A stretch of DNA of 35,708 nt. It comes from an uncultured Candidatus Saccharibacteria bacterium (GTDB lineage: Bacteria > Patescibacteriota > Minisyncoccia > Phycocordibacterales > Phycocordibacteraceae). A program made the translations under genes and the position numbers. Location: positions 3,787-39,494 of the forward strand of contig CAZYRK010000004.1 in NCBI GenBank assembly GCA_964650475.1. The letters are read 5' to 3'. Below, piece by piece: positions 424 through 29,163 of this stretch (position 1 is the first letter of the stretch; every line of letters begins with the position of its first letter). The notes under the pieces were generated by a model. That model saw nothing but the letters and a program-made list of their open reading frames with translations, did no database searches and was not told the origin of the DNA.

Positions 424-681
424 TTAAATATCTACGTAAATTTTCACTTCTTCTCCATGAACTGCTATTACTGAATTTTTGTATGAAAAAGTTTTTTCCT
501 TATCAAACATGCGAATTATAATTGGCTTATCTTTCACAAGAGTCACAAAGTTTGAATGCCCCGGAAGAATATCAAACAAACCTATACTGTTTTCAGAAGA
601 TACGCTGTTCGCTTTCCCCTGCCACAAAACCTCGTCCGGAGAGTTTATCGTGACATTAACCGTATCTGGTATTTTTTTCAT
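424..681 (-). CDS. atpC: F1 epsilon-like subunit, N-terminal beta-sandwich only
   Basis: VTINSPDEVLWQG...GLFDILPGHSNFVT matches the epsilon N-domain (G.FGILPGH.P); 85 aa with no C-terminal helical hairpin; ATGA overlap with beta stop. Confidence 0.85.
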   Translation of the reverse strand: MKKIPDTVNVTINSPDEVLWQGKANSVSSENSIGLFDILPGHSNFVTLVKDKPIIIRMFDKEKTFSYKNSVIAVHGEEVKIYVDI

Positions 682-2075
682 ATCTCTTCTTTTATAACAC
701 CTTTTGCAACACCGATATATGAAAACTTTTCCGGAGCTATAGCATCAAATTCACCAGAAAGTATCCCCTCAACATCCTCTATAACAGCATCTCTCGAGAC
801 AAACACTCCTTCACGCCCCGTCTGTTCCTCCATAGTAAAGAAAGGTTGCGTCATATAGTTTCTAAGACGCTGAGCGCGCTCATATGTAAGTTTGTCTTGA
901 GCAGAAAGCTCTTCCTTGCCGATAACAGCGACAATACGCTCAAGTCTCTCGTATTGATTTAATGTTTCTATAGCAGACGTCAGGGCTTTGAAATGTCTGT
1001 CTGTTATCAACGATCTGTCGAGCACCGCCGACTTCGAAGTTAAGAAATCTACAGCCGGATACCGACCCTCCTGGCTCATTGGTCGCGAAAGCACAACAAC
1101 AGCCTCAAAATACGGCAACGCGGCGGCAACAGACGGGTCTGTTAGCTGGTCTCCCGGAACATATACTGTTTGAATAGAGCTTATCGATGCCGATTTACCG
1201 CTCGAGAGACGATTTTCGAACTCAGCAATTTGCGTTTGCAAAGTAGACTGATAACCAAACTCTGACGGTATCTCTTCAAGAAGAGTTGAAAGCTCGTTCC
1301 CTGCCTGAACGAAGCGAAAGATGTTATCTACAAAGAACAAAACATCCGTTTGCTCTTCGTCTCTAAAATATTCCGCCAATGTAGCGGCGGCGGCGGCGAT
1401 TTTAAATCGAACAGCGGCATTTTCATTGATATGCCCAACAATAAGCGCTGTCTTTAGTAGAGCCCCTGTTTCTTGAAGTGACCGCCAAAGCTCGTGACCT
1501 TCTCGAATACGCTCACCGATGCCTGCAAAAAGAGTCACTCCGGGGTGTGTATTATTGAGATTCCTAATGATTTCAGTCATTAATGCAGTTTTGCCGACAC
1601 CAGCCCCGCCGACAAGTGCAAGACGCCCGCCCTCTACCAGAGGCGTAAAGAAATCCAAAATCTTAATGCCTGTTTCAAGTAGTATCTTTTTTTTGTTTCT
1701 ATGTATGGTTATAGCGCGCACAGGAGGATTGATAGGTCTCCTTTCTTTTTCTCCCAATAAAATACCCCCGTCCACAGGTAATCCGTATAAATTAAAAGCC
1801 CTTCCAAGAACACACTCTCCGACAGGAATAGAAAGCGCCGTACCGCTACCAACAATACGCATACCTCTATAAACATCTTCTTTTGAAGACAATAATAAAC
1901 AATGTATTAAATCTCTCCTATAATATGAATGAACTTCGAGTATTACCTTAGAGTCTTTTTCTGCATTTAGCACTTCCAAAAGCTCCGGCCTGTAGTCGCT
2001 CTCGCAATGCACAAGAACAATTTGTCCTCGTACTCCATATACTCGACCAACGAATTGTTTAGTTATTTTTTCCAT
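678..2075 (-). CDS. atpD: F1 ATPase beta subunit (divergent, catalytic motifs intact)
   Basis: LETGIKILD, Walker A GGAGVGKT, GERIREG catalytic Glu, Walker B LFFVDNIFRF, PSEFGYQ, DELSEED-equivalent EELSAQD. Confidence 0.96.
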   Translation of the reverse strand: MEKITKQFVGRVYGVRGQIVLVHCESDYRPELLEVLNAEKDSKVILEVHSYYRRDLIHCLLLSSKEDVYRGMRIVGSGTALSIPVGECVLGRAFNLYGLPVDGGILLGEKERRPINPPVRAITIHRNKKKILLETGIKILDFFTPLVEGGRLALVGGAGVGKTALMTEIIRNLNNTHPGVTLFAGIGERIREGHELWRSLQETGALLKTALIVGHINENAAVRFKIAAAAATLAEYFRDEEQTDVLFFVDNIFRFVQAGNELSTLLEEIPSEFGYQSTLQTQIAEFENRLSSGKSASISSIQTVYVPGDQLTDPSVAAALPYFEAVVVLSRPMSQEGRYPAVDFLTSKSAVLDRSLITDRHFKALTSAIETLNQYERLERIVAVIGKEELSAQDKLTYERAQRLRNYMTQPFFTMEEQTGREGVFVSRDAVIEDVEGILSGEFDAIAPEKFSYIGVAKGVIKEEI

Positions 2076-2908
2076 TTTGAAATTGCTGCAAACGACTCAA
2101 GAAGTCGCAAATCATTAAAGGTATCAATGTTTTTTTGTATATCTCGACGAATACGTTTAATCTGTTTGTCAGCACGATCTTGCGAACGATTGATTGAAAA
2201 CAAACGTGCCGCCGTGCGTGCAAGCTCTGATTCCAAAACCACACGACCAAAAAGCAAGTAACGAATTCTAGTTTCAAAAAAACCAAGTACCTGCGAAAGC
2301 TCAGGTTCGAAAATGTACTCGACAAGCTCGGTCTCTTCAGATTCTACCTCACTTGCGGTGTGTGTAATGTCAGTTTGCTCTATTTTTTGTGCAAAAATAC
2401 TTACAAACGATGGGTAAAACACATGCACTTCATCGTATGCTTCAATCTGATTAAGAAACTTATGTATTTCTGCTTTTGTTGGGCGGTCTTCGACAAAAGA
2501 AAAAGTTTTAATATTTGGTAATTTATCAGACATATCCTCAAGAAAAGACTTCCCTGTGTTTCCTATCACAAGAGTGTCTGTATCTTTAGCGGAACGGGAC
2601 TGTTTAATAAAAGACCTCATAACGTCTGCATTAATTGAACCGTAAAATCGTGTATTCGAAGTTAGTGCTACAAACACCCTACGCACTACGTTTGTTGTTT
2701 TTTTTGGAAGATCGCCCCGAGAGCGCGCTGATCTTTTAATGTCCGAATACAAACTACTTATATCGATATAAAATCTTTGATTTTTTTGAAATTCCGCGCG
2801 CAAATGACCAAGTTTTTCAACACTTATATCAAAAAGAGCCGAAACAACAAAACGGATTGTCTTCAGGTCTTCCAGTTCACTTTTTTTGTTTCCTACAGCT
2901 GTTGACAT
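2063..2908 (-). CDS. atpG: F1 gamma-like subunit (divergent)
   Basis: Position between alpha and beta; TSNTRFYGSIN (cf. TSDRGLCG.FN), YIFEP, ESELARTAARL; terminal helices. Confidence 0.9.
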   Translation of the reverse strand: MSTAVGNKKSELEDLKTIRFVVSALFDISVEKLGHLRAEFQKNQRFYIDISSLYSDIKRSARSRGDLPKKTTNVVRRVFVALTSNTRFYGSINADVMRSFIKQSRSAKDTDTLVIGNTGKSFLEDMSDKLPNIKTFSFVEDRPTKAEIHKFLNQIEAYDEVHVFYPSFVSIFAQKIEQTDITHTASEVESEETELVEYIFEPELSQVLGFFETRIRYLLFGRVVLESELARTAARLFSINRSQDRADKQIKRIRRDIQKNIDTFNDLRLLESFAAISKWKK

Positions 2909-4380
2909 ATATTTTCAAAATAAGGCACAGCTACCGCAAGTTTTCGCAAAAACTGTTCGATTGATATCGTCCCCCGGCGCGCGCTGTTTACAACAGCCTC
3001 AATCTCCTTGTTTGTCCCCGGATTATGCATTATTTCGATAAGAGCATCGCGATTATTGCGCGCAAATGATACATCTTTACCATCAAAGAGCTTTGTAAAA
3101 ACAAGAGAAAGCAACACAATCTGTACTTCAAGGAACATTTCGCTCATAGGCTCTTGGTCAAGGAAAACAAGCATTGTTTCCCCCCTGTTTATAGTTCGGC
3201 GAGTATTTTCAGATAACTGTGTTCCAAACTCAAGATATTTACGTTGCCTTTCATACTCTGCAATAAGTGTTTGTATCCGAATAGATAGTTGCTTCGCCAG
3301 CTTACTCTGTGTTTTGCGCCCGACACGAGTCACAGACTCTTCCGGAATAACTGCTGGAAAATGTCCTTCCGAGTTCAAGAGCGGTGAAAAGAAAAGATGC
3401 CCATCTGTTGCTGAAACTAGATTTGTTGAAATAAGGCTTGATATGTCTTCTATGTTTGTTTCAAGCACCGGCAAAATCGTAATGCTTCCAGAACCAACAC
3501 TTTTGTTAAAACGCCCGCCACGCTCCAATAAATGCGCCTGTTGATAGAACATATCGCCCGGATACGACTCGCGTCCAGGTACTTGACCGGACATAAGTGC
3601 TATTTCTCGTAAATATTTTGCGTGGTTACCAAGGTCATCAAGAACAAGAAGAACATCCTTCCCCTCCCAAGAAAAAGACTCTGCGAGCTCAAGAGCTACA
3701 GTCGGTGCAAGATAAATCATCGGAGCAGGCTCATCTGAAAATGTTGCGAGAATAATGGTGTTTTTATTACCTTTCTCACTAAAAATACGCTCTATGGCTC
3801 CTTCAATATACGCAACTGGACGCCCTATAAAAGTATAGATACATACAACATCTGTGTTTACTTGGTTAGAGATTAGCCCTTCCAAAAATACAGTAATTCC
3901 GCTTGAAATAGGACCGGTAATAAGTTGGCGCTGTCCTTTTGCGATAGGCACAAGTATATCAACAGCGGGCATTCCGGTAAAAAGTTGCTCTGTCATTTGT
4001 TTACGGGCACTCATAGATGGAGCAGATCCTTCAAGGCTGAGAGGTGTCTCACCCTTAGAAAAAGCTCCTAGTCCGTCGATAGGCTCTCCAAGGACATTCA
4101 TCGTACGCCCAAACAGTTCTTCCCCAAACATATAACGCACACCATCAGCATACTGTACAAACCGGTCACCAGACTTAGGGTTTCCGCGATCAAGCAAGAG
4201 TGCTTCAACTCTGTCTTCCAAAAGAGCAGTTATTATCGCGCGTTGCCCCCTGGTATTGCAGATAATATTATTAACGCGCGCTGAGGGAAGTCCTTCAAGA
4301 GTAAGTAAATACCCTTTTGCTTGTACTACAAAACCGGTTTCTCCATCATTAAATGCGCTTTTTTTTGTTAAGTTATTCAT
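2893..4380 (-). CDS. atpA: F1 alpha-like subunit with degenerate P-loop
   Basis: GRTMNVLGEPIDG, PIAKGQRQLI, GKDVLLVLDDL, PGRESYPGDMFY, LLERGG, GSITILP, TNLVSATDGH, SVTRVG (Arg finger); Walker A reads GPISSGIT. Confidence 0.93.
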   Translation of the reverse strand: MNNLTKKSAFNDGETGFVVQAKGYLLTLEGLPSARVNNIICNTRGQRAIITALLEDRVEALLLDRGNPKSGDRFVQYADGVRYMFGEELFGRTMNVLGEPIDGLGAFSKGETPLSLEGSAPSMSARKQMTEQLFTGMPAVDILVPIAKGQRQLITGPISSGITVFLEGLISNQVNTDVVCIYTFIGRPVAYIEGAIERIFSEKGNKNTIILATFSDEPAPMIYLAPTVALELAESFSWEGKDVLLVLDDLGNHAKYLREIALMSGQVPGRESYPGDMFYQQAHLLERGGRFNKSVGSGSITILPVLETNIEDISSLISTNLVSATDGHLFFSPLLNSEGHFPAVIPEESVTRVGRKTQSKLAKQLSIRIQTLIAEYERQRKYLEFGTQLSENTRRTINRGETMLVFLDQEPMSEMFLEVQIVLLSLVFTKLFDGKDVSFARNNRDALIEIMHNPGTNKEIEAVVNSARRGTISIEQFLRKLAVAVPYFENICQQL

Positions 4381-4922
4381 ATTTTGCTTTGATGTAGTGG
4401 AAACGTTGGCATTGTTTGTCTTATTTTATTTTCCAACTCCAAACGATGCTCTTCAAGATAGTATTCGAAACCAAATTCGTGCAATTTACTATGCCAAACT
4501 ATTTGGCACCCTACTGAAATTGATTGGTCAATATCAACATCAAGGAGGACGTCTGGAGAAACCTCCAGACGCGCCCATTTCCCTATCGATTCTATCTGTT
4601 TTGGACCTAAGACAATAGGAACAACTATCGATAACGTCGGCAGGTTATCTACTTCATCTGAAATACTGTTTAATTTTTGATGAAAAGATTCTGATGAAAA
4701 CTCTTCAAAAAAACTTGCTGAAAGGCTTTCTAGAAATACAATATCGGTATGCGGTCTCTCGTCTTTTTGCGAAAACGATTTAATCACGTCTTGGTTTACA
4801 TTTGTGGCGTGCGCTGTAAAAAACACAAATTCGAAAAACTCTTTTAAGACTCCAATTCTGTACGCCACATCAGAGCGACTGTATACCTGTGTTGTAATTT
4901 CTGTAAGCAGGTCTTTTATCAT
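4377..4922 (-). CDS. atpH: F1 delta/OSCP-like subunit (divergent)
   Basis: Directly upstream of alpha with ATGA overlap; C-terminal VPIVLGPKQIESI...VLLDVDIDQSISVGCQI resembles the delta C-domain (VDPSILGG); 181 aa. Confidence 0.7.
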   Translation of the reverse strand: MIKDLLTEITTQVYSRSDVAYRIGVLKEFFEFVFFTAHATNVNQDVIKSFSQKDERPHTDIVFLESLSASFFEEFSSESFHQKLNSISDEVDNLPTLSIVVPIVLGPKQIESIGKWARLEVSPDVLLDVDIDQSISVGCQIVWHSKLHEFGFEYYLEEHRLELENKIRQTMPTFPLHQSKI

Positions 4923-4925
4923 AGT

Positions 4926-5699
4926 CTACATAGAAAAAACACCTTTCTGTTTCGCTTCTTTTAAGGCTTTAATTACTAAATCTTTATGGTCTTCAAGAGA
5001 AATGATTTTATTTAGTGCGATGCGAGCGGTGTCTTCAACAAGAGAGACAATCTCCGAGTTAAGGGCTTCTAGTCTTTGTGTACGATATATCTCGAGAGCT
5101 TTCCTTGTTTCTTGTATGTCTTTTTCAAGCTCTTCAGACATAATCTTTTTTGTGTCTTCGATAAGCGCTCCGTATTCATTTTTTGTGTCTTCTTCCATTT
5201 TGGAAAAGAACTTCTTCATATTTTCTCTTTCGTCACCCATAAGCTTCTTAAGCTCCTCTTCTTGCGCTTCAAGAGTGGTGCGCATGCCTTCCGTATGCTC
5301 CTTAAACCCTACAGAAACAGCCTCAAGAGCCTGTGTAAGAGTAGTGACATGCTTTGTCAACAAATCTTTCGCGTGGTCTGTAGACTCTTGCAACTGCTTC
5401 TTTTGTGCGTCCAAAACTGCTTCATCTTCTTTCTTAAGAATTTCAGAAATATCTCCAGAACGCGTGCGAACAGCCTTACTTTGTTCGCGCGCTTCTTCCA
5501 ATATTTTTTCCGCTTTGCGCTCCGCTACGTTTGTTATTCGGTAATACTCGGGAGATATCAGACTTCGAAAACGCGCTTCAAATTGGATAATGACTGCTAC
5601 AAAAACAACGAGTGTCAGAAGTATAAGAATAAGGACGCCCAAAATAACCGCACTTATAGGGGAAGAAAAAACAGTGGTGATTATGTTTGTAAAATTCAT
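4926..5699 (-). CDS. atpF: Fo b-like peripheral stalk protein (N-terminal TM plus long coiled coil)
   Basis: Hydrophobic segment ISAVILGVLILILLTLVVFVAVII; AERKAEKILEEAR coiled coil; C-terminal LVEDTARIALNKIISLEDHKDLVIKAL is b-like; operon position. Confidence 0.7.
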   Translation of the reverse strand: MNFTNIITTVFSSPISAVILGVLILILLTLVVFVAVIIQFEARFRSLISPEYYRITNVAERKAEKILEEAREQSKAVRTRSGDISEILKKEDEAVLDAQKKQLQESTDHAKDLLTKHVTTLTQALEAVSVGFKEHTEGMRTTLEAQEEELKKLMGDERENMKKFFSKMEEDTKNEYGALIEDTKKIMSEELEKDIQETRKALEIYRTQRLEALNSEIVSLVEDTARIALNKIISLEDHKDLVIKALKEAKQKGVFSM

Positions 5700-5710: not shown

Positions 5711-6610
5711 TTATACGGGTAAAAAGAACACCATAAACCCAACAAAAAGCCCAGCCATACTTACCAAAATTATAAGTATAGTATCAAGAACCACGATAGA
5801 TTGAATCGATGACTTTGCCAAAGGGTTACGCCCAACGGAAACAACACTGTTTTTTATGTTTGAACCGAAGTTTTTAAACGCTACAATAACCGACCCTATC
5901 GCAATTGTCGCTGCAATTATGTATTTAACAAACACAGGTATCGGCAAACTGTCTTTATTATTTCCAGTACCATTACCAACACCGTTTTTCTGATTTGTTG
6001 CAGTTCCTGCTGAAACAGGTTTTGACACGAGAGGTGTTGTACTTGCTGTTGCGTTTCTGCTGTGCGGACCCACAGAAAGAAGCACGTGTATTGACCCTGT
6101 GTAAACAACATTCGCGGTTGAGGTACTTACTATGCGTGTACTTGTTGCAATACCTGTAAAAGGTTGTAGTGCCGTCCCTACAATATAAATGTCGGTATCA
6201 TTTGCTTTCTGCCCCTTACCGGGGATTGGAGACGAAGTTATAAAATCTCCGGCATGTATGACTCCGCCTAGAGTAGTTACATTTACAACAACCTCCCCCG
6301 AACGAACAACAGGTACACCACCGTTTGCAGAACGAAAAACAACTACAGGATCATTTACAACTACACCAAACATATTTTTATCGCTTGTTATGTTTGTAAT
6401 ATTAAATGTTTGTTTTGTTTTGTTAAAAGAAATAATATCTCCTGAAATAGGGGGCTTGCCCGAGACAATGTAAGTTTGTGCAAAAGTACTTTCATTGGCA
6501 GTTTTAAAAAACTGGGCATGCGCAATAGGAATAATAGTAATTCCAAAAACAGTCACTACTATAAATATTATTCCTTTTAAAAAAACTTTTTTTGTTTTAG
6601 AAAAGCTCAT
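5711..6610 (-). CDS. Signal-peptide/extracytoplasmic-domain protein with C-terminal subunit-c-like hairpin
   Basis: N-terminal signal ending AHA-Q; beta-rich domain (GDIISF, GVVVNDP, GDFITSSPIPGKGQKA); S/T-rich linker; two C-terminal TM helices joined by GRNPLAK; occupies the atpE position. Confidence 0.7.
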   Translation of the reverse strand: MSFSKTKKVFLKGIIFIVVTVFGITIIPIAHAQFFKTANESTFAQTYIVSGKPPISGDIISFNKTKQTFNITNITSDKNMFGVVVNDPVVVFRSANGGVPVVRSGEVVVNVTTLGGVIHAGDFITSSPIPGKGQKANDTDIYIVGTALQPFTGIATSTRIVSTSTANVVYTGSIHVLLSVGPHSRNATASTTPLVSKPVSAGTATNQKNGVGNGTGNNKDSLPIPVFVKYIIAATIAIGSVIVAFKNFGSNIKNSVVSVGRNPLAKSSIQSIVVLDTILIILVSMAGLFVGFMVFFLPV

Positions 6611-6612: not shown

Positions 6613-7659
6613 CTATTGCTCTCCGAGATGCGCAAACGGATTAATTTTTATTTTACTTGTTTGCGCACTGTTTTTTAAACCAGAAGTACGCATGTTTTTA
6701 GCTTGTTGTTTTGCTCGTAATTCTTGTGAAAAAGCATTGAAGTTTTTGTACATTATCGCTGTTGCTACGACACTTTTGTTTGTAAGACTCATCACAGAAT
6801 GACCGACTGCAAAAACAGTATCTCCCACGGTATCTGCAACACGAGGAGAGCCATCAACAAACGCATATATCATATTCGTGTATCCTGCTATCGAAGAACG
6901 TGTAATATTTTGCACCGCTTCTCCAACAGAAATTGCCACTTTGGGAAAAGTGTCTCGTGTATAGATACTGGTACTGCGCACAATCTTACCGCTCACTAAA
7001 ACAGTCCTGCTGTACCCATGGAGAGTGCTTTGTATAGCGCTATATGTAATCTCCCCGACACGCACATAGCTATACAAAGAACCTTTAAGTACATTTGGTG
7101 ACAAAGAAATACCATCTGTTCGCGCAAGACTATTACCGATGTGTACTGATGCAGTAAAAGATGTCGCTCGCGAATACGGTCGTTGTGAAAAAATATGGGT
7201 AACTGCTCCGTACGCAGAAAACATACAAACAAAAGCGAGAGCGAGTGTAGCTCCACCAATAAATGCGTTATGGATAGGTGTGATATTTTCCTGTGTAGAA
7301 TCTTGTAATAAAAAGTTTAGGAAAATAGCTTTTTGCGGTTTTTCTATAGCTTCGTTTTGTTTGTGCTTTTTGTCTATTAAAAGCCCCACGGATTTATATT
7401 CCGGAATACATTGTGTATCTTTTTGTGCCTTTTTATATTCTTCCTCGCGAATTTTTGCAAGCTCTGTTGCTCGTTCTTTTTTTTGCAAAGTATTTCTTTC
7501 AACAAAATCGTTTAGTGACACTTCATCAATAAACCATTTGTTTCCTATGCGCTCCCCACGAACCTTCCCTGTTCGACAAAGGTTCGCGACATAGCTCGTA
7601 CTATATTTTGTACGTGCAGAGGCTTCACTTGCTGATAATTGTAAAGAGGGTAAATTCAT
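6613..7659 (-). CDS. Membrane-anchored protein with N-terminal excisionase/MerR-like HTH
   Basis: LSASEASARTKYSTSYVANLCRTGKVRGERIGNKWFID is a winged HTH (HTH_17-like); TM AFIGGATLALAFVCMFSAYGAV; stop 2 nt before the c-like gene start. Confidence 0.7.
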   Translation of the reverse strand: MNLPSLQLSASEASARTKYSTSYVANLCRTGKVRGERIGNKWFIDEVSLNDFVERNTLQKKERATELAKIREEEYKKAQKDTQCIPEYKSVGLLIDKKHKQNEAIEKPQKAIFLNFLLQDSTQENITPIHNAFIGGATLALAFVCMFSAYGAVTHIFSQRPYSRATSFTASVHIGNSLARTDGISLSPNVLKGSLYSYVRVGEITYSAIQSTLHGYSRTVLVSGKIVRSTSIYTRDTFPKVAISVGEAVQNITRSSIAGYTNMIYAFVDGSPRVADTVGDTVFAVGHSVMSLTNKSVVATAIMYKNFNAFSQELRAKQQAKNMRTSGLKNSAQTSKIKINPFAHLGEQ

Positions 7660-7853: not shown

Positions 7854-8702
7854 TCATTTTGCTATGTATGTTGTTGTTCCGGAAAAGTAACTTATTATTC
7901 CATTAGTTCCTATGGAGGTCTTTGAAAGCGCTCCGAAACTTATAATGGTTACCAAAACAACAACCGATGCAATGAAAATAGTGACGATATTTACAACCTG
8001 CGCAAAAAAGTTTTTATTCTCCGAAGCTTCAAAATATACATTATCATCTGTATCTATAGATTCACCGTTCTTATTACCGCCCTGCGAAACATTGTTTTCT
8101 GAAGACTTGGTTCCGTATTTTTTACTTATTTCAGCATTCCATTTTTGTAAAGCTTCAATACTTTTAGTTGTTTCCAAAGAATCATCGATAAGTGATATGT
8201 CTATATCCGATATAGTGTTATCAGGTTCATGACAAGACTCGTTGTGAGGGATTTCCATATGTTTTTCAGAAACATCAGTATCGAATTCTTTATCGACATC
8301 ACAGCTATTATGGCTTTTTTTCAAAGTAGCGCTTCCATTATTTAATGGAAATTCTTGCTCTTGTTGTTGAACCTGCTTTGATGCTGTGGACTTTTTATTT
8401 AACTTAATAAGCTTTATTGGCGCTACGTCCTCGTGGGTGTATTTGATGTGTTCACTATATGACTCTTTTTTCTTTGTATTTTTATCTTGTTTCGTACTTG
8501 TTTCCGAATCAGAAGTTTTTTCGCCACCAAAACGATGCGCGCGGATAGAATCTTCCAACACATACCAACTTCTCCCAACGAGACGTGCCGTCACTCGCCC
8601 TTCTCTGCACAACTGCCCTACGTAGTCCTTTGCGTAACCGGTTATTTTTGCAGCACCTTTTGAAGAAAGATACTTTTTGCCATCTAGAGTGAGTTCATCC
8701 AT
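7854..8702 (-). CDS. HTH protein with acidic disordered linker and C-terminal TM
   Basis: YLSSKGAAKITGYAKDYVGQLCREGRVTARLVGRSWYV HTH, paralogous to 6613-7659; TM VVNIVTIFIASVVVLVTIISFGAL. Confidence 0.75.
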   Translation of the reverse strand: MDELTLDGKKYLSSKGAAKITGYAKDYVGQLCREGRVTARLVGRSWYVLEDSIRAHRFGGEKTSDSETSTKQDKNTKKKESYSEHIKYTHEDVAPIKLIKLNKKSTASKQVQQQEQEFPLNNGSATLKKSHNSCDVDKEFDTDVSEKHMEIPHNESCHEPDNTISDIDISLIDDSLETTKSIEALQKWNAEISKKYGTKSSENNVSQGGNKNGESIDTDDNVYFEASENKNFFAQVVNIVTIFIASVVVLVTIISFGALSKTSIGTNGIISYFSGTTTYIAK

Positions 8703-19243: not shown

Positions 19244-20065
19244 ATGCAAAAAACAACACTCATTAAACCAAAGAAGGCGCTCAGCCTAGACGACATAAAA
19301 GAAATCTGGCAATACAAAGAACTGCTATATTTTTTCACATGGAAAGACTTTAAGGTTCGCTACAAGCAAACCGCCATAGGTGTTTTGTGGGCTATATTCC
19401 AACCATTTATAACCATGGTCGTGTTTAGTGTCTTTTTCGGAAAGTTTGCACACATGCCCTCGGACGGAATCCCCTATCCGATATTCGTATATACCGGGCT
19501 ACTATTTTGGCAATTCTTTTCATCAGCACTCACACAAACAAGCGGTTCGCTAATAGCGAACTCAAATATTATTACAAAAGTATATTTCCCTCGACTTATA
19601 CTTCCCATATCCGGAGTCATCACAAAATTCGTAGACTTTTTCATATCCGCAATAATTCTGGTCGGCATGATGATTTACTATGGCTATGTACCAAACCTTT
19701 CAGGAATATGGATACTTCCGCTACTCCTTATTATAACCTTCATGGCAGCAATAGGAGGCGGGCTATTTCTTGCCTCTATAAATGTGAAGTACCGCGACGT
19801 ACGATACGTCTTGCCTTATTTCATTCAAACAATGCTCTTTCTAACCCCTGTTATTTATCCTGCGAGCATGGTCGGAAAATACTCGTGGCTTTTGGCAATG
19901 AACCCTATGACGGGGGTTATAAAAGCTGCGAGAGCATCGCTTTTCGGAAACGCCCCTGTAAACTGGGAGCTTCTTGGAATTTCATTTATCGCCGTCTCTA
20001 TATTACTTATAATAGGTGTAACCTTTTTCAAAAAAACTGAAAAATACTTCGCGGATATCGTATAA
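19244..20065 (+). CDS. wzm: Polysaccharide ABC transporter permease
   Basis: KDFKVRYKQTAIGVLWAIFQP, KVYFPR, KYRDVRY, LTPVIYP, MNPMT; ABC-2 permease pattern. Confidence 0.93.
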   Translation: MQKTTLIKPKKALSLDDIKEIWQYKELLYFFTWKDFKVRYKQTAIGVLWAIFQPFITMVVFSVFFGKFAHMPSDGIPYPIFVYTGLLFWQFFSSALTQTSGSLIANSNIITKVYFPRLILPISGVITKFVDFFISAIILVGMMIYYGYVPNLSGIWILPLLLIITFMAAIGGGLFLASINVKYRDVRYVLPYFIQTMLFLTPVIYPASMVGKYSWLLAMNPMTGVIKAARASLFGNAPVNWELLGISFIAVSILLIIGVTFFKKTEKYFADIV

Positions 20066-20080
20066 TTTACATAGAACAAT

Positions 20081-21319
20081 ATGGAACCGATTATAACCAT
20101 CAAAGGAATGTCAAAAAAATATAATATAACCCACCAGCAGGGGGGCTATGTTGCATTAAGAGACATCCTCGCCGAGACAGCCAAGCACCCTTTTAAATTT
20201 CTAAAAGACAAAACCAAAAAAGTAATTCGCAGAGAAACGCGAGAGGAGTTTTGGGCACTAAAAAACATAAGCTTCACCGTGAACAAAGGCGAAGCCGTTG
20301 GCATTATCGGGGCAAACGGTGCAGGAAAATCCACCCTCCTAAAAATACTTTCAAAAATAACCCCGCCGACAGAAGGCACAATAGAATACAAAGGCACAAT
20401 GTCTTCCCTACTGGAAGTGGGCACCGGCTTTCACCCAGAGCTAACAGGCAGAGAAAATATTTTCCTAAACGGGGCGATACTTGGCATGACCAAAAAAGAA
20501 ATCGTGGAAAAGTTTGACGACATCGTGATGTTTTCCGGAGTCGGAAAATTCCTCGACATGCAAGTAAAGAGATACTCCTCCGGAATGTCTGTACGACTTG
20601 CTTTTGCCGTTGCCGCGCATATGGAACCGGATATTTTAGTGGTCGATGAGGTGCTTGCAGTGGGCGATGCGGAATTTCAAAAAAAATGCCTCGGCAAAAT
20701 GGACGAGGTAACAAAAAAATACGGGCGCACCATCCTTTTTGTCAGCCACAACCTCCCTGCCGTACAAAGCCTGTGCAAAAGATGCATACTTATTGAAGCT
20801 GGAGAAATTAAAATGATCGGCGACACCAAAGATGTCATTGCACGGTACTTAAAACTATCACAGAATGGACCAAAAAGAGTGGGACCTTACAAGACAAATA
20901 TTGATAATTTTTATATAGAAAATATTAAACTTATCAATAGAAATAAATCTATTTATAATCAACCGTTAGAATTTGAGTTAATTCTAACTTCCGCCAAACC
21001 AATAAACAATATTTTGATCGGGCTACAAATAACAAACAGCCAATTGGTAAGAATAATGACCGCCAAAGTTGATATCCCCAAAATGGATGTAGGTAAAAAT
21101 AAATTACATATTACTATTGAGAACCCTTATTTGCCTCCCGGTAATTATAATTTGAACGCTGGTATAGGAGTTTTGGGAAATAACGTTTTTTATAAGACAC
21201 ATTTATTACCCTTTGAGATATCAACTGAAGGAATTGAGGATATGTTTGCCATATCCAAAAAAGATATTTTGGGAGTATACCCTCCAGTAAGTTACGTTTT
21301 AGAAAAAATAGAAAAATAA
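20081..21319 (+). CDS. wzt: Polysaccharide ABC transporter ATPase with C-terminal carbohydrate-binding domain
   Basis: EEFWALKNISF, GANGAGKS, GFHPELTGREN, YSSGM, DEVLAVGD; C-terminal beta domain (LPPGNY). Confidence 0.94.
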   Translation: MEPIITIKGMSKKYNITHQQGGYVALRDILAETAKHPFKFLKDKTKKVIRRETREEFWALKNISFTVNKGEAVGIIGANGAGKSTLLKILSKITPPTEGTIEYKGTMSSLLEVGTGFHPELTGRENIFLNGAILGMTKKEIVEKFDDIVMFSGVGKFLDMQVKRYSSGMSVRLAFAVAAHMEPDILVVDEVLAVGDAEFQKKCLGKMDEVTKKYGRTILFVSHNLPAVQSLCKRCILIEAGEIKMIGDTKDVIARYLKLSQNGPKRVGPYKTNIDNFYIENIKLINRNKSIYNQPLEFELILTSAKPINNILIGLQITNSQLVRIMTAKVDIPKMDVGKNKLHITIENPYLPPGNYNLNAGIGVLGNNVFYKTHLLPFEISTEGIEDMFAISKKDILGVYPPVSYVLEKIEK

Positions 21320-21335
21320 TAATAAAGGATACGAC

Positions 21336-22346
21336 ATGACTCACACAATAATTAGTTGGGATTGTAGTTATAGAAATTTTTTCCATATTATTGACGGACT
21401 ACTACTTCAAGACTACCCCAAGGAAGAGTTTGAGCTTATCTATATCGAACAACGGAGTAAGAAAGTGGCTAATAAACACAATCGCAGTCTTGGACTAAGT
21501 TCTCTTGAAGACCGATATAGAGAAGTAAAAAATAAATTAAATATTAAGATTATTTATTTAGACGAACCCGGAACAGTTCCTTTCCATTGGGGTAGATGTA
21601 ATAATGCCGGACTTAGTATCGCTAAAGGTAAAATAATATCTGTTATGGATGGAGACCAACTATTACCAAGAGATTTTTTGATTAAGCTACAAAACTTCCA
21701 CGAGAGGAGCCCTGATGCTGTAATAAATATCTACAGGAAAATGGCTCAATATCCTGCTGGTGTAAAATCGTATAAAAAATGGTTCGAGGCAAGTAATGAT
21801 TTCCATAAGTGCTTGAATACCTGCCTTAACAAGAACTCTACTGTTCCAAAAAATGCAGGGAATAAAGGGCCTATGATATCTGCTCGCAAAGAATATTGGG
21901 ATAAGATAGGAGGATATGACCCGCACAAAATTTGGAGTACCAGTTTATCAAAATTGGGGGGGGATGTTAATAAACGACTGGAAATAGCAACGGGGTCACA
22001 AAGCGTTTGTCTACCAAATTGCTTTACAGTACACCCATGGCATCCACGAGGAACAGAATCCTTACGCCAAAATGAAAGTATTTTGAAATATTTTTCTTTT
22101 CAAGATAAACTGACTGACTGGTCTACTAAACACAATGAACCGCACCATAAAAAAAGATTGCTCTTGGCAGATAAAATTTATAAAGAAAATAAAAAAAGTA
22201 TTGAAATGATTCGGTCTCTGTATCATATTGATGAGACAAAGAATGATGTTATTCTAAAAAGTATACTCAAGATAAAGTTTCAAAATCAGTACGCTCGACT
22301 TAAAGGTATTATTTATAGAATTAGAATTAAATATAAATTATTATGA
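21336..22346 (+). CDS. Glycosyltransferase, GT-A fold (GT2-like)
   Basis: QDYPKEEFELI, NNAGLSIAKGKIISVMDGD, IGGYD. Confidence 0.8.
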   Translation: MTHTIISWDCSYRNFFHIIDGLLLQDYPKEEFELIYIEQRSKKVANKHNRSLGLSSLEDRYREVKNKLNIKIIYLDEPGTVPFHWGRCNNAGLSIAKGKIISVMDGDQLLPRDFLIKLQNFHERSPDAVINIYRKMAQYPAGVKSYKKWFEASNDFHKCLNTCLNKNSTVPKNAGNKGPMISARKEYWDKIGGYDPHKIWSTSLSKLGGDVNKRLEIATGSQSVCLPNCFTVHPWHPRGTESLRQNESILKYFSFQDKLTDWSTKHNEPHHKKRLLLADKIYKENKKSIEMIRSLYHIDETKNDVILKSILKIKFQNQYARLKGIIYRIRIKYKLL

Positions 22347-22374
22347 AACATATTTTATTAAAATTAATAATCAA

Positions 22375-23322
22375 ATGATTAAACTTATATTTAATGGTTA
22401 TTACCGTTCAGGGACAACGATGATGTATAAGATACTAAAAAAAAGCAATCCTAAAACAGATTGTTTTTATGAGCCGCTACATCCAAATTTGTTTAACGAA
22501 ATAACAAAAGGAACTGCAACATCCCTACATAAATTTTATCCATGGAGCGACTATAACGAAAGCAATTTTAAATCTGTTTCAAAAAGATATAGACTAGTCC
22601 ATAGTAAATTAAAAAAAACAGGTGATGATATTATTCCTACTAATCTCCAAGAGATTAGACCTCTTTTTGATCTTTTCCAAAATTTCAAAAAAGACGTAGT
22701 ATTACAACCCAACAGATGTCACCTCGTTCTAAAAGAGGCTACGAGCAACTACAATTGTAAATTTGTACACATAGTCCGTAACCCTATTAACGTTTGGTTA
22801 AGCCAAACATTAACACCACCAATAAGAAATAGAGACCGGCTTAGAAAAACCTATGGATTTGTAACAAGTCTTTTTGGTAAGACTGGCAAAAAATACTTTT
22901 TGATGAAATACTTACCAAAAAATAAAGAGGTTGGAAACTTTTTTTTTGGAGATTCTGACTATAAACTTATAGCGAATAAATTTAATAGACCAATTAACGA
23001 AAAAAATCAACTGTCTAAAATGCTTACTGTTTGGACATATTTTAATTACCAAGCTTTTGTTCAAGCGAGTAATGGAAACGGGATGATTGTTTTTTATGAA
23101 GACATTGTACTTGAACCTGAAAAATGGTTAAAAATAATATCAAATTTTTCAGGTTTAAAATTAGATAAAAAATATGCTAAAAACATACTTCCCAAAATAG
23201 ACTCCGATAAAAATTTAAGACAGGGCTTTGTAAAAAAATTAAAAGAGCTTGAATTAATTGATATGGTTAAAGAATTCTACCCTCCTGAAAACTGGTTTGG
23301 TAATTTCGTAGAAAAAAATTAA
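22375..23322 (+). CDS. PAPS-dependent sulfotransferase
   Basis: 5'-PSB loop GYYRSGTT, FYEPLH, 3'-PB motif HIVRNPINVWLS, YEDIVLEPE. Confidence 0.82.
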   Translation: MIKLIFNGYYRSGTTMMYKILKKSNPKTDCFYEPLHPNLFNEITKGTATSLHKFYPWSDYNESNFKSVSKRYRLVHSKLKKTGDDIIPTNLQEIRPLFDLFQNFKKDVVLQPNRCHLVLKEATSNYNCKFVHIVRNPINVWLSQTLTPPIRNRDRLRKTYGFVTSLFGKTGKKYFLMKYLPKNKEVGNFFFGDSDYKLIANKFNRPINEKNQLSKMLTVWTYFNYQAFVQASNGNGMIVFYEDIVLEPEKWLKIISNFSGLKLDKKYAKNILPKIDSDKNLRQGFVKKLKELELIDMVKEFYPPENWFGNFVEKN

Positions 23323-23335
23323 ATAAAGATTTAAA

Positions 23336-24484
23336 ATGAATATCTATATAGATGGCATAATTTACAATCTACAAAAAACCGGCGGGATTTCTCGTTATTT
23401 TAATGAGTACCTCAGTAGATTAAACAATATAGAGGTTGATACAAAAATAAATATTCTAATTGATAAAGACCTGATCGGGGAACTGCCAAAAGAAGAAAAT
23501 ATTACTATTAAAAAAGTAAGACAGTTAACACCTCCACGCCCTAACCGTATTTTTAAACCTTTGTTTCAACCAATAAATAACTACCTTAAAAATAGATATT
23601 GGGAGAAGTTAACTACCGGTGTTTTTCACTCAACTTATTTTACCACCTATGAAAGCTTAAAAATTCCGCAGGTTCTTACCGTGCACGATATGATTTATGA
23701 AAAATTTCCTGTTTTTTTTCATACAAAATTAAGCTTGGAATTTGTCAAACAAAAAAAGAAGTGCATCGATTCGGCAGATGCTATTATTTGCGTCTCTGAA
23801 AACACAAAAAAAGATTTGATCGATTATTACAACGTGAATGAAAATAGAATTTCTATAATTTATTTAGGAGTTAGTCATGATTTTAAAAAAATTACAGATA
23901 AAAAAATAAAAGAAGATTTTTTAGATAAGAAAAACATTATAAAACCATACTTATTATACGTGGGTGCTAGAGATAAATATAAAAATTTTTTAGGCTTTAT
24001 TAAATCATACAATAACTTAAATGAGTTCAATTTAGATGTCATAGTTGTAGGTGGTGGAAAGTTTACAGAAAAAGAAATTAATTTGTTTAAAACAAATAAT
24101 ATTGAAAATAAAATTCATAATTTTGGTTTTGTTTCCAATAGAGAATTAATTTCATTATATAATTGTGCGAAGGCTTTTGTATTTCCATCACTTTATGAAG
24201 GGTTTGGTATACCGTTACTAGAAGCAATGGCGTGCGGAACCCCTATTGCAACATCAAATTCATCATCCCTACCAGAAGTTGCTGGAGATTCTGCTTTATA
24301 TTTTGACCCAAAAGATACAGAAAATATGACCAAAGTAATAGCACAAGTAATACTTGAGGGAAGAAATTCAAATCGTATAAAATTAGGGTTAAACAGGGTT
24401 AAAAATTTTACATGGAGTAAAACAGCGGAAGAAACCCTTAGAGTATATAAAAAAATCATAGATAAACAAAAACTAAATCAATAA
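23336..24484 (+). CDS. Glycosyltransferase family 4
   Basis: GGISRY, TVHDMI, VSENTKKD, FVFPSLYEGFGIPLLEAMACG. Confidence 0.92.
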   Translation: MNIYIDGIIYNLQKTGGISRYFNEYLSRLNNIEVDTKINILIDKDLIGELPKEENITIKKVRQLTPPRPNRIFKPLFQPINNYLKNRYWEKLTTGVFHSTYFTTYESLKIPQVLTVHDMIYEKFPVFFHTKLSLEFVKQKKKCIDSADAIICVSENTKKDLIDYYNVNENRISIIYLGVSHDFKKITDKKIKEDFLDKKNIIKPYLLYVGARDKYKNFLGFIKSYNNLNEFNLDVIVVGGGKFTEKEINLFKTNNIENKIHNFGFVSNRELISLYNCAKAFVFPSLYEGFGIPLLEAMACGTPIATSNSSSLPEVAGDSALYFDPKDTENMTKVIAQVILEGRNSNRIKLGLNRVKNFTWSKTAEETLRVYKKIIDKQKLNQ

Positions 24485-24488
24485 AAAT

Positions 24489-25289
24489 ATGCACGAGACC
24501 TTTGTTATTGTTCATGATCAAAACAAAATTATAACCTTTGAAAAAAATAGGTTTTTTTCGCAGTTTCCAAAGATTAGGTATATATTTGTCGGAGCTGGAG
24601 ATATTTCTCTTATTAAAAGTATGGATAATGTCATTATCTCGAGAAATCTACCTGACAATATTGAGAAATATAAATATCTTGTAGCATATACAGCTTGGTA
24701 TTCCTTGGTGAAAAATAATTTAATTAGAACCCTTTTCGTTACTCTGCTCGAATATGACATAAGTCTTTCTAAGGATTTTTATTTGAAGTCCTCTACTAAA
24801 CTTAAAAAGAACCCCCGTGCGGTTATTGGTTATGTACCCCATTCAATGGGTAGTCCTTATTTCTTATCTGGAAACAAAGGGGCTGATATTTTAATAGATG
24901 GCGTTAATAACGTTTATCAAGTTAATATTAAGCAAATTATAGATTCCTATATAAAAAATACCGGGGACAACACGTGGCCATCAACAAGCAATATCAGTAT
25001 GAGTAGCGAGACTCTTAGAAATTTCGTAAAGTGGTTTACCCCAATTTCAATTTTAATAAGGAATGACAAAAACTGTGGACACTCATTTGAAAGAGCTGTA
25101 AAAATATATTGCATATTAAATAATATAAAAAATTACTATATTTCAGACGTCCTTAAACATTACCAGCTTGATTCTCACTGTACTCAACAAAATTCTCCTG
25201 ATACTATAAAATCAAAATACAAATTCTTAAGGAGGCTTAAATTAAGATTTCTTAAGAAATTCTTAAAATATCTTTTTTATGAAACCTAA
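24489..25289 (+). CDS. Hypothetical glycan-locus protein, possibly a glycosyltransferase
   Basis: Co-oriented and coupled ORF; LLEYD and GHSFER motifs are only suggestive. Confidence 0.55.
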   Translation: MHETFVIVHDQNKIITFEKNRFFSQFPKIRYIFVGAGDISLIKSMDNVIISRNLPDNIEKYKYLVAYTAWYSLVKNNLIRTLFVTLLEYDISLSKDFYLKSSTKLKKNPRAVIGYVPHSMGSPYFLSGNKGADILIDGVNNVYQVNIKQIIDSYIKNTGDNTWPSTSNISMSSETLRNFVKWFTPISILIRNDKNCGHSFERAVKIYCILNNIKNYYISDVLKHYQLDSHCTQQNSPDTIKSKYKFLRRLKLRFLKKFLKYLFYET

Positions 25290-26193
25290 AGTATCTATTT
25301 GTATCCCAACATATGTACAAACAAAGTATCTACAAAAGACACTTGATTCTGTTTTGATGCAAGATTATCAAAATTATGAAATTATAATTACAGATGATTC
25401 CCCAGATGATTTAGTTCAAAAGCTCGTACAAAAATACGATTTTGGAGATAAGCTAAAATATTTTAAAAACAAACCTAGAAAAGGCAGTCCTGAAAACTGG
25501 AACCTTGCTGTAAACTGTGCGTCTGGAGAATACATAAAGATATTACATCATGATGATAAGTTTATGTTTAAAGACAGCCTGCAAGAATATGTAAACATGC
25601 TTGAACAAAATCCGGACGCTGATTTTGCATTTAGTGCAACAGCTATACACTATTCAAAAGACAGTACCAAAAACAGGGTACACAAAGTTTCTTCAGAACA
25701 AATAGATATCTTAAAAAGAGACCCTTTGAGTTTATTTTTTGGAAACCTTATAGGCGCTCCAAGCACTACGATATATAAAAAAAATACTAACAAAAATTAT
25801 GACAAAAACTTAAAATGGCTCGTTGACATAGATTTCTACATTAGAATGTTATCGGATAATCATAATTTTGTATATTCTCCGCGCACACTTATCGGTACTG
25901 TTGCTGATGCAGACCATAAAATAACAAATCAATGTGCTGATAACAAAAATATTGAGATTTTTGAAAATTACTATTTATTCAATAAAATCAGTACCTTAAT
26001 TCCAAAAAAACAACTTAAAAAATATTTATTGCGATTGTGGTCAATAACGTTACGCCACAATATTAAAAACATTGAGGAAATTAGAGCCTGTGGTTATAAA
26101 TCAGATATTCCGTCACGCATTCCTTTTTTGTTTTTTTTAAATAAAATTTCATCAAAATTAACAAAAATTTATATAAGGAGTAATTTACTATGA
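25279..26193 (+). CDS. Glycosyltransferase family 2
   Basis: PKVSICIPTY, EIIITDDS, NWN...ASGEYIKILHHDD. Confidence 0.9.
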   Translation: MKPKVSICIPTYVQTKYLQKTLDSVLMQDYQNYEIIITDDSPDDLVQKLVQKYDFGDKLKYFKNKPRKGSPENWNLAVNCASGEYIKILHHDDKFMFKDSLQEYVNMLEQNPDADFAFSATAIHYSKDSTKNRVHKVSSEQIDILKRDPLSLFFGNLIGAPSTTIYKKNTNKNYDKNLKWLVDIDFYIRMLSDNHNFVYSPRTLIGTVADADHKITNQCADNKNIEIFENYYLFNKISTLIPKKQLKKYLLRLWSITLRHNIKNIEEIRACGYKSDIPSRIPFLFFLNKISSKLTKIYIRSNLL

Positions 26194-27041
26194 TTAATTT
26201 AATGATATGTTTTGCTCGCTCTGGTGGAACGCTTCTAAACCGATGTCTGGGTAGCTTACCTGACGTTGTTATAATGTCTGAAGTTAACCCACTGGGTGGT
26301 GGCTGGGGTGAAAAAAAAGAAAGCTCGCCAAATACAATACAGGAACAAGCAAAACAATGGTACGGCATCGAGTTAAGAAATAATATTTTTGAAAACAGCG
26401 CTTTGGAACTATCTAATATATGTATTAAAAATAATAAAAAGTTAATAATACGAGATTGGTCATTTATTAATTTCACACCACATGAATACAATAATTTTAC
26501 ACCCCCGAACAAATTATTGTCTATTGAGAAATTAAAAGGTCAAAACAAACTCCGTACTTTTGCTTTTGTTCGCGACTCTATTGATGTATGGATCTCTCGC
26601 GGAATGCCTCTTACGCAAGATTTTTTTACACAGTATTCACTATATATAGATGAACTAATCAAAAATGATATTAAAATATTTAAATATGAAAATTTTTGTA
26701 AAAATCCTGATCTCGAGATGAAAAAAATCTGTATGTATATCGATATTCCATACAGTGATTCATATAAAAAATACAACGACTTCACAAATGTTAGTGGTGA
26801 CGTTCAAGGCAAGCAAAAGCCAAGAAGTATCACTCACACTAAAATAAGACCCGTTGCGCGGAAGACCATCCCTTTACGAAAAATCTTTGAATTAAATGGG
26901 TGCTCTCAAATGAGAGAAACGAATAAATTACTAGGTTATAAAACCTCGTATTATATTTCCAACTGGATGCGATTAAAAGTATGGGTTAAAAACATCTTTT
27001 TAATACTAAAGAGATTAAAATTAATTATTGTAAAATCATGA
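26190..27041 (+). CDS. Sulfotransferase-like protein
   Basis: CFARSGGTLL PSB-like loop, SEVNP, FVRDSIDVWIS, KYENFCKNP. Confidence 0.72.
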   Translation: MINLMICFARSGGTLLNRCLGSLPDVVIMSEVNPLGGGWGEKKESSPNTIQEQAKQWYGIELRNNIFENSALELSNICIKNNKKLIIRDWSFINFTPHEYNNFTPPNKLLSIEKLKGQNKLRTFAFVRDSIDVWISRGMPLTQDFFTQYSLYIDELIKNDIKIFKYENFCKNPDLEMKKICMYIDIPYSDSYKKYNDFTNVSGDVQGKQKPRSITHTKIRPVARKTIPLRKIFELNGCSQMRETNKLLGYKTSYYISNWMRLKVWVKNIFLILKRLKLIIVKS

Positions 27042-27967
27042 AAAAGGTACTCGTACTTGGCGGAGCGGGTTTTATAGGATCTAATTTGGTAGAGCGTTTA
27101 ATTGATGCTGACAAGAAAGTCATTGTATTTGATAGGGAAAAGGCACACTGGAAAAATATCGAACCATTTATAGATAAGATAGAAATTATTAAGGATGATT
27201 TTAATAATTTTAAAATCTTAGAGCAAATATTTAGAGAAAACAAAATAGATACCGTAATACATTTAGTATCCTCAGCAATTCCTTCTACACAGCTCGACGG
27301 TTTCATTCAAAACAATGAGCTGGTTTTCACAATGAAGCTTGTTGATATAATGATAAAAAATAAAGTAAGCAAGATTGTTTACTTTTCTTCAGGAGGAGCG
27401 GTTTACGGAGCCAACGGCGAAGAAAAAAATAAAGAGGATTCCCCTACCAAACCGATAACTCTTTATGGCTGGTTAAAAGTGACATTGGAAAACTACATAC
27501 AAATGTGTGCGCAGATTTATGGTCTGGATTATATAATTTTGAGAGTTTCCAACCCTTATGGAAAAAACCAAAACATATTTGGGAAGCTTGGATTAATATC
27601 TGTTGTAATTGGCAAAATACTCCGTGGGGAACCCATGGAAATATGGGGAGACGGAAATGTTGTGAGAGATTATATTTGTATTGACGACGTAAGCAAGGCA
27701 ACGCTAATGCTTATTGAAAACAATAAGTGGGGTGGTGTTTATAATATAGGAAGCGGTAAAGGTAGCACGGTAAATGAAATATTGAAAACACTGAAAAAAA
27801 TAACCGCTAATGATTGTAAGGTTATATATAAAAAATCAAGAACAGTGGATATCTCTACAAATATTTTAGATATATCGAAACTAAAAAATGACCTACCTTC
27901 CCTTCGGCTGACCAGCTTGAACGAGGGTATAAAAAAATACTGGGAAAGTTTAAAAGACAATCATTAA
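27038..27967 (+). CDS. NAD-dependent nucleotide-sugar epimerase/dehydratase
   Basis: GGAGFIG, SSGGAVYG, YGWLK (YxxxK), RVSNPYG, WGDGNVVRDYI, YNIGSG. Confidence 0.92.
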   Translation: MKKVLVLGGAGFIGSNLVERLIDADKKVIVFDREKAHWKNIEPFIDKIEIIKDDFNNFKILEQIFRENKIDTVIHLVSSAIPSTQLDGFIQNNELVFTMKLVDIMIKNKVSKIVYFSSGGAVYGANGEEKNKEDSPTKPITLYGWLKVTLENYIQMCAQIYGLDYIILRVSNPYGKNQNIFGKLGLISVVIGKILRGEPMEIWGDGNVVRDYICIDDVSKATLMLIENNKWGGVYNIGSGKGSTVNEILKTLKKITANDCKVIYKKSRTVDISTNILDISKLKNDLPSLRLTSLNEGIKKYWESLKDNH

Positions 27968-27974
27968 TTTCTTT

Positions 27975-28982: not shown

Positions 28983-28984
28983 AT

Positions 28985-29016
28985 TTTAATAACAAAATGA
29001 AAATACTTCACACAGT
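28985..29016 (+). repeat. 32-bp direct repeat, copy 1 (copy 2 at 29994-30025)
   Basis: TTTAATAACAAAATGAAAATACTTCACACAGT occurs at both positions. Confidence 0.9.
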
Positions 29017-29163
29017 GGAAAACTACAGTCGCGCTAAAGCAGAAACAAACTGTTGCTAAATTCCATGGCACGAAACGGATATGACGCATGGTTGAAAAAG
29101 TTTACATGGAAAGAAATTGCTCAAAAATATGAAAACGTTTATTTAAATTTAGATATCGGGTAA
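28997..29163 (+). pseudogene. Internally deleted GT4 remnant, paralog of 30006-31265
   Basis: Starts MKILHTVENY (cf. MKILHTVKQY), then in another frame MARNGYDAWLKKFTWKEIAQKYENVY (cf. LAYAGYKSWQERFTWEKIAREYERVY). Confidence 0.8.

Follow-up and report, generated by a model that had tools for sequence, protein, structure and literature searches.

What defines an F-type ATPase is an a subunit paired with a c-ring whose hairpins carry a membrane carboxylate, and N-ATPases, the alternate F1F0 enzymes found as a second F-type operon in one genome, keep both the a subunit and an ion-binding c. Acid-free hairpins of the c type can occur as regular components of a rotor ring, as in c1 of Acetobacterium woodii and the V-type proteolipids, and such hetero-rings still pump. 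The F1-like X0 ATPases of mycoplasmas have taken on other tasks: Type 2 is the gliding motor and Type 3 is needed for antibody cleavage by the MIB-MIP system, a surface function, and in the portions of PMC3369863 and PMC12994834 available to us these enzymes are described as specific to mycoplasmas. Here, we analyse a 35,708-nucleotide (nt) stretch (hereafter the window; positions 3,787 to 39,494 of contig CAZYRK010000004.1, assembly GCA_964650475.1) from an uncultured Candidatus Saccharibacteria bacterium of the Patescibacteria, and in it an open reading frame (ORF) of 299 amino acids (aa), the c-like protein, which ends in a helical hairpin and heads a cluster of F-type ATPase genes.

We propose that this ORF encodes the membrane subunit of a second, paralogous F-type ATPase, an ion-free, ATP-driven rotor acting on ectodomains, a reading that in our estimation stands about even. 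We found neither such a cluster nor a fusion of subunit c with an ectodomain described in the literature, including the available portions of PMC8672522, PMC12281837, PMC10633639 and PMC11738941.

A second F-type cluster without subunit a

The c-like gene is followed by homologues of b, delta, alpha, gamma, beta and epsilon, tightly packed with gaps or overlaps of at most 16 nt:

5711..6610, (-): c-like protein, 299-aa ORF, ending in the hairpin sequence quoted in the first-pass annotation of the window
4926..5699, (-): b-like peripheral-stalk subunit, 257 aa, with N-terminal membrane anchor and coiled coil (hhalign)
4377..4922, (-): delta-like subunit, 181 aa (hhalign)
2893..4380, (-): alpha-like subunit, 495 aa, with degenerate P-loop GPISSGIT (PF00006, 1e-54)
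2063..2908, (-): gamma-like subunit, 281 aa (PF00231, 4.8e-23; TIGR01146, 1.2e-16, under cut-off)
678..2075, (-): beta-like catalytic subunit, 465 aa, with intact GGAGVGKT, GERIREG and DNIFRF (PF00006, 7e-59)
424..681, (-): epsilon-like subunit, 85 aa, beta-sandwich only, without the C-terminal helices (PF02823, E 7.9e-11, over cut-off)

Aligned with hhalign against the canonical Patescibacteria families, the b-like subunit matched b with a probability of 93.5% (P 2.4e-7) and the delta-like subunit matched delta with 97.0% (P 1e-10), while the cross-controls, b-like against delta and delta-like against b, gave 0.3% and 0.4%. The alpha-like subunit reaches 3.4e-99 against the NCBIfam F0F1 alpha model, under its cut-off, and the beta-like subunit scores 436 bits against the atpD model, whose cut-off is 462.85. 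All 18 beta-like homologues retain Walker A. In the window's copy the catalytic GER..E and DN motifs are intact too, and this subunit is predicted from its sequence to be catalytically intact. The Walker A lysine is gone from the window's alpha-like P-loop, and 17 other alpha-like homologues keep GK followed by T, S or N; the non-catalytic sites of this organism's enzyme may do without nucleotide binding. The epsilon-like subunit is conserved in 17 of 21 loci; at four loci (L041, L047, L051 and L053) its ORF is called on the strand opposite to the cluster, which may be real or an artefact of ORF calling. A scan for promoters and terminators returned no more sites than shuffled sequences did.

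The genome (659 kb, 98.6% complete) carries a canonical a-c-b-delta-alpha... operon on another contig, and its sole over-cut-off match to subunit a (PF00119) sits in that operon, not in the cluster. No ORF of the conserved cluster exceeds about 2-4 hydrophobic segments.

This arrangement resembles that of the mycoplasma X0 ATPases, which, according to the parts of the reports available to us, also form a second seven-gene F-type cluster beside a genuine F1Fo, contain alpha-, beta-, gamma- and epsilon-like subunits, and have a proposed ATPase-only function tied to surface proteins (PMC3369863, PMC12994834). Their 'Protein 5', compared here by its description in these parts only, likewise combines a signal peptide, an ectodomain and two C-terminal transmembrane helices. 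As described there, however, the mycoplasma systems include a twelve-transmembrane Protein 1 and a small cytoplasmic Protein 2 and no b or delta, whereas the cluster in the window has retained homologues of b and delta and conserves no ORF with multiple transmembrane segments. The window's alpha and beta score no better against the mycoplasma families than against ordinary atpA and atpD: 214.1 and 372 for NCBIfam MSC_0619 and MSC_0618 (cut-offs 520 and 570), and 277.3 and 369.7 for MMOB1660 and MMOB1670 of the gliding family (cut-offs 600 and 850). N-ATPases (TIGR03305/TIGR03324) share with the window the presence of a second F-type operon, but the window's cluster has no a or canonical c, and its beta and alpha score 422.9 (cut-off 752) and 299.2 (cut-off 750.5) against the N-ATPase models.

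The c-like protein joins a secreted beta domain to a membrane hairpin

The c-like protein and the codons discussed below divide as follows:

6512..6610, (-): signal peptide, residues 1-33, with basic N-end, hydrophobic helix 4-25, and A-H-A then Q
6065..6493, (-): extracytoplasmic beta domain, residues ~40-182, with a phage cement/decoration-like fold
5942..6064, (-): low-complexity tether rich in S, T, G and N, residues 183-223, of varying length among homologues (gappy alignment columns)
5711..5941, (-): c-subunit-like helical hairpin, residues 224-299 plus stop (helix 1, 224-261; helix 2, 263-296)
5813-5833, (-): hairpin loop G260-K266 (G-R-N-P-L-A-K); the helices meet at G260-R261-N262-P263
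5783-5785, (-): codon of D276, position +15 counted from R261
5768-5770, (-): codon of I281, position +20 counted from R261, the carboxylate position

We modelled the whole protein with AlphaFold2 from a 41-sequence alignment and obtained a mean predicted local distance difference test (pLDDT) score of 81.5. The beta domain lies above 95, residues 191-219 of the tether fall below 50 and are disordered, and the hairpin helices reach 80-88; modelled alone, the hairpin adopts the same fold at 88.4. The signal peptide helix is present in the model, and among 41 homologues A32 is invariant and Q33 is found in at least 90%, consistent with predicted cleavage at this site. Given the signal peptide, the N-terminus would lie outside the cell and the hairpin loop in the cytoplasm. 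The protein is thus built from a signal peptide, a beta domain of ~145 aa, a flexible tether of ~40 aa and a c-derived C-terminal hairpin. The first-pass annotation, made from the letters of the window, had described a C-terminus of two transmembrane segments joined by a loop; this description stands, and its meaning widens, in that the hairpin ends a secreted protein instead of forming a free-standing c subunit. Neither the N-terminal ectodomain nor the second, a-less F-type cluster beside a canonical F1Fo had figured in it.

Searched with Foldseek against the PDB, the beta domain finds as top matches the capsid cement or appendage proteins of phages Pam3, Borrelia BB1, TW1 and phi29 (gp8.5/gp12); the best E-value in BFVD is 4e-11, and the Pfam family PF23982 (XM1_gp53 minor capsid) matches weakly, with E 9e-4 here and matches in 24/41 homologues. 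The same cement-like domain (profile positions ~35-155), sometimes repeated, also occurs inside ORFs of 1000-4900 aa that have no hairpin, in ~100 further genomes of the phylum. A search relying on shared words, and so weak evidence, found no hairpin-bearing protein longer than 524 aa and one shorter form, a 158-aa protein of 80% identity that is probably cut by a contig end. At two loci (L091 and L097) the hairpin-bearing ORF is 606-619 aa long, against 244-340 aa elsewhere; that of L091 matches a helix-turn-helix (HTH) profile too and may reflect either fusion to the HTH gene upstream or an ORF that was called too long.

The hairpin is a diverged homologue of subunit c

Like canonical subunit c (AtpE; PF00137, TIGR01260), the C-terminal part of the c-like protein is a hairpin of ~75 residues with both termini outside and an R-(Q/N)-P loop inside, encoded in an F-type cluster immediately before a b homologue, and the AlphaFold2 model shows two transmembrane helices in the 70-85 residue size class of c subunits. 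We aligned 121 homologous hairpins with 25 canonical c subunits from Patescibacteria genomes, including that of the same genome, using hhalign, which returned a probability of 95.5% (P 1.6e-8) and a score of 46.0 over 46 columns. The reversed c alignment scored 9.1, and 60 column shuffles reached at most 16.2. A profile of the family run against all PDB sequences gave 13 matches at E<=10, ten of them ATP synthase c subunits, the best being the c2 chain of Acetobacterium woodii (E 0.01), with a gapless alignment from the loop into helix 2. When hairpins were scanned alone, 16 of 21 phylum-wide sequences matched the NCBIfam 'F0F1 ATP synthase subunit C' model (best 2.4e-5), and TIGR01260 reached 3.7e-7 at best; all of these matches lie below the curated cut-offs. 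The signal emerges only with profiles or with the excised hairpin: when the 299-aa protein was scanned at full length with Pfam and NCBIfam, no c-subunit model matched, and a search of PHROGs found nothing.

The fold points the same way. In the Foldseek comparison of the hairpin model with the PDB, all rows listed to rank 50 are F-type c subunits, with template-modelling scores of 0.51-0.86 and root-mean-square deviations of 1.4-4.0 A over 64-76 columns, although the best E-value is only 0.021. The resemblance to the c-subunit loop and helix 2 that the first-pass annotation had noted by eye is therefore borne out by hhalign, the PDB profile search and the NCBIfam scans, with profile matches well above shuffles and structural matches of weak E-value. 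The loop core is G-R-N-P-E-A in canonical Patescibacteria c and G-R-N-P-L-A in the c-like family; this shared G-R-N-P agrees with a putative origin through duplication inside the phylum.

The likeness might instead be convergent, of a sort that every membrane hairpin of two helices and a short basic loop could show; short transmembrane hairpins are common. Convergence of this kind could account for the weak Foldseek values, for the failure of every curated c model to pass, and for a VIA-align comparison that does not clearly part c subunits from designed or unrelated hairpins. It would not account for shuffled and reversed controls that lie far lower, for the dominance of c-subunit families in independent searches of PDB sequences and NCBIfam, for a loop motif identical to that of the same phylum's canonical c, or for a gene in the atpE position directly ahead of a b homologue. 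We therefore consider convergence very improbable and the homology of the hairpin to subunit c, as judged from sequence profiles, well supported, as is its genomic context.

The membrane carboxylate is lost throughout the family

The cytoplasmic helix ends and the R-N-P loop are the most conserved part of the whole c-like protein: G260, R261, N262, P263 and A265 are invariant in 121/121 homologues, and R261, N262 and P263 are also kept in 21/21 phylum-wide sequences, as expected of the subunit c loop. The membrane carboxylate is gone. At +20, where gapless alignments set the c-subunit Glu opposite V, L, I, A or F, the homologues have Val (40), Leu (26), Ile (23), Ala (23) or Phe (4), together 116/121, and no acid is among these five commonest residues. 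In the window, counting from R261 confirms the earlier observation of Ile at +20 (I281) and of an Asp at +15 (D276) as the sole acid. A conserved carboxylate at the position of E. coli c Asp61, which would have spoken against the loss, was not found. The GxGxGxG motif of helix 1, already reported missing from the window, is absent from the family consensus and present in the 25 canonical c subunits, including that of the same genome. The window's hairpin thus departs from canonical c in both helices, in its secreted N-terminal extension of 220 residues, in having no partner a and in its sub-threshold scores.

The first-pass annotation had left it open whether ion binding was lost or relocated. 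Loss holds across the family; relocation to +15 is not supported, as this position is Asn in 116, Asp in 4 and His in one of the 121 homologues. Asp at +15 is not a family feature: the window shares it with its three closest relatives only, at identities as low as 57%. Because Asn is the rule, we read the +15 acid as a local replacement for an otherwise conserved Asn rather than as a coupling site that has moved.

An enzyme that still translocates ions, with its coupling site moved to the polar +15 residue and an unrecognised stator in place of a, must nonetheless be considered: the polar residue in helix 2 is nearly universal (Gln takes its place in 2/21 phylum-wide sequences), and Asp is retained throughout the window's clade. 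Asn, however, cannot carry a proton as Glu and Asp do, the cluster contains no conserved multi-helix membrane protein, and the transmembrane segment of the b-like subunit is unconserved and has no conserved charge. Together with the genomic survey below, this leads us to regard continued ion translocation as improbable.

Acid-free hairpins have a precedent in the hetero-ring of Acetobacterium woodii, in which the second hairpin of c1 (4bem_J), aligned with the c-like family in the PDB profile search, has Q where c2 has E. There, as in V-type proteolipids, acid-bearing hairpins are both fused to the acid-free one and interspersed with it, and a is present, whereas the window's cluster has no acid-bearing copy.

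Distribution, gene order and phylogeny

Of 301 genomes sampled from the phylum, one of them unpublished (G154), at least 41 encode a full-length member of the family; the 41 carriers, and the 15 of them without canonical c, were read by eye from tables, and 59 weaker matches are unlisted, hence the lower bound. Canonical c (PF00137) is found in 26/41 carriers, and 15/41 have no PF00137 match. For these 15 genomes the cluster is the only F-type ATPase found, a circumstance that would favour an ion-translocating enzyme, but PF00119 exceeded its cut-off in none of the ten tested (0/10), two of which are single-contig genomes. Among 185,579 species genomes scanned we found 398 relatives or loci, and neighbourhoods were taken for the best 80.

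In 17/20 phylum loci the alpha-, gamma- and beta-like genes adjoin the c-like gene, 16 of them in the window's order and one with the c-like gene after beta. ATPase genes adjoin it in 71 of the best 80 loci of the second collection, and contig ends truncate six of the remaining nine. The c-like gene has no F1-like neighbours despite sufficient flanks in 3/20 and 3/80 loci: L057 (G030), L046 (G170), L054 (G148), L134, L138 and L153.

These six loci bear on a further alternative, in which the hairpin is no rotor but a static anchor that ties the F1-like ATPase, or nothing, to the membrane; the surface beta domain would then do the work, for example as a cement or adhesin, and the F1-like module would have some other ATP-dependent or regulatory role. 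The long disordered tether, the occurrence of the same beta domain without a hairpin in many 1000-4900-aa ORFs of the phylum and the loss of GxGxGxG agree with such an anchor. A mere anchor, however, needs none of the five invariant residues in and beside the cytoplasmic loop, and it leaves unexplained both the tight operon linkage in the two collections and the retention of a full set of stator (b, delta) and rotor (gamma, epsilon) subunits. On balance, we find the static anchor rather unlikely, though the most serious of the competing explanations.

In a tree of beta sequences, calculated without an outgroup from other phyla, a branch with a Shimodaira-Hasegawa approximate likelihood ratio test (SH-aLRT) support of 94 separates the 18 beta-like sequences from the canonical beta of the same phylum. 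One 'canonical' beta, at L175 (G022), has a GPFGSGKT P-loop and a very long branch and looks like an A/V-type catalytic subunit; this carrier may therefore pair an a-less F-type cluster with a V/A-type enzyme. The record titles of relatives name mostly Patescibacteria lineages and, in a minority, proteobacterial or Bacteroidota metagenome-assembled genomes (MAGs). About 25 of the best 80 loci (L099, L102, L107, L110, L139 and others) are titled as Gammaproteobacteria, Pseudomonadales, Alphaproteobacteria or Cyclobacteriaceae MAGs; their content resembles that of Patescibacteria loci, so these labels may be binning or naming errors.

Surroundings of the cluster

Two proteins with an HTH domain are encoded upstream of the cluster, with which they are possibly associated:

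6613..7659, (-): 348-aa protein with N-terminal HTH_17-like domain, one transmembrane segment and an extracytoplasmic remainder (HTH_17, 7.4e-6)
7854..8702, (-): 282-aa HTH_17-like protein with one C-terminal transmembrane segment (HTH_17, 4.5e-4)

The stop codon of the first lies directly ahead of the c-like start codon. On the other side, just before the window's first base (L189, 3-3632, (-)), the epsilon-like gene is followed immediately, and on its own strand, by a gene truncated at the contig end, whose product spans at least 1210 aa. This protein combines an HTH-like N-terminus with one transmembrane segment and long repeats rich in Gly, Thr and Ser, including a segment of about 190 residues that is nearly duplicated; a Pfam scan of it gave no match. 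The cluster is therefore flanked by three of the genome's only four ORFs with this HTH-like N-terminus. Across 100 loci, 46 have an HTH_17/MerR-like ORF within 1.5 kb upstream of the c-like gene, and these upstream ORFs are often giant (up to >2500 aa) and divergently transcribed, including at loci L041-L056. An HTH domain on a membrane-anchored surface protein is odd in itself. The idea that the giant upstream neighbours share the beta domain was rejected, since the domain profile matched only the c-like proteins in 21 loci.

Further along the window, ~19244-32167 (+) is low in GC content (29-36%, against 40-45% elsewhere) and encodes an ABC-2/Wzt-type exporter pair, a sulfotransferase, seven glycosyltransferases and an epimerase. 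This stretch is a surface-glycan island, possibly an acquired one.

A proposed ion-free rotor

We propose that copies of the hairpin form a ring that would carry gamma and epsilon and that the cluster probably works as an ATP-driven motor and not as an ion pump. With both the a subunit and the carboxylate missing, the enzyme would move no ions and would run as an ATPase only. ATP-driven rotation, or torque held against the b/delta stator, could act on the tethered ectodomains, which in turn may pass motion or tension to something at the cell surface; the likeliest partners would be the flanking membrane-anchored proteins with a cytoplasmic HTH-like N-terminus. The working mode would be like that of the mycoplasma F1-like X0 ATPases. 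A structure prediction of the complex of gamma-like, epsilon-like and four hairpins gave scores of 0.02, 0.46 and 0.01 and counts neither way.

Several results weigh against the ion-free rotor. At the level of homology, the hairpin misses the curated thresholds of every c-subunit model (PF00137, NCBIfam): PF00137 matches 0/41 full-length family proteins and 5/21 isolated hairpins, with a best E of 0.0011 under the cut-off, and VIA-align, which ranks c subunits 1-6 at Z 9.5-10.2, is non-discriminating in that unrelated helical hairpins reach 8-9.4. Mechanically, a disordered tether of ~40 aa is a poor shaft for torque. The loci without F1-like neighbours suggest that the c-like protein may have a life apart from the ATPase, and one of their genomes, G030, has a single weak PF00006 match in its entirety. 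The conserved membrane Asn, Asp in the window's clade, could serve some ion or proton path. The sequencing runs listed included no RNA data. The association with HTH proteins was measured with a profile of our own making and against background counts in a single genome.

More tentatively, and possible rather than probable in our judgement, the rotary motor may have been repurposed as an ion-free c-ring bearing a crown of extracellular domains, through which ATP hydrolysed in the cytoplasm would power mechanical work at the cell surface on the flanking membrane-anchored fibre proteins, so that the bacterium could attach to its host cell or move on it. If so, it would be the first known case of a c-ring that passes torque to the outside instead of carrying ions, and the two-transmembrane 'Protein 5' of the mycoplasma gliding and MIB-MIP ATPases would also be a c-subunit derivative.

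In this conserved Patescibacteria lineage every other subunit has been retained while exactly a and the c-carboxylate were dropped and c was fused to a surface domain, which provides a sequence-level handle on the re-use of rotary ATPases beyond ion transport, a question that the mycoplasma gliding and antibody-cleavage motors pose as well. For about a third of carriers the cluster is the only F-type ATPase found, and a metabolic reconstruction that calls an ATP synthase present from alpha and beta genes would be wrong for them; databases that treat such gene sets as incomplete, as the available part of the ProAD description has it, would miss them. The cluster is a candidate surface machine in episymbiotic bacteria whose apparatus for host contact is poorly known.

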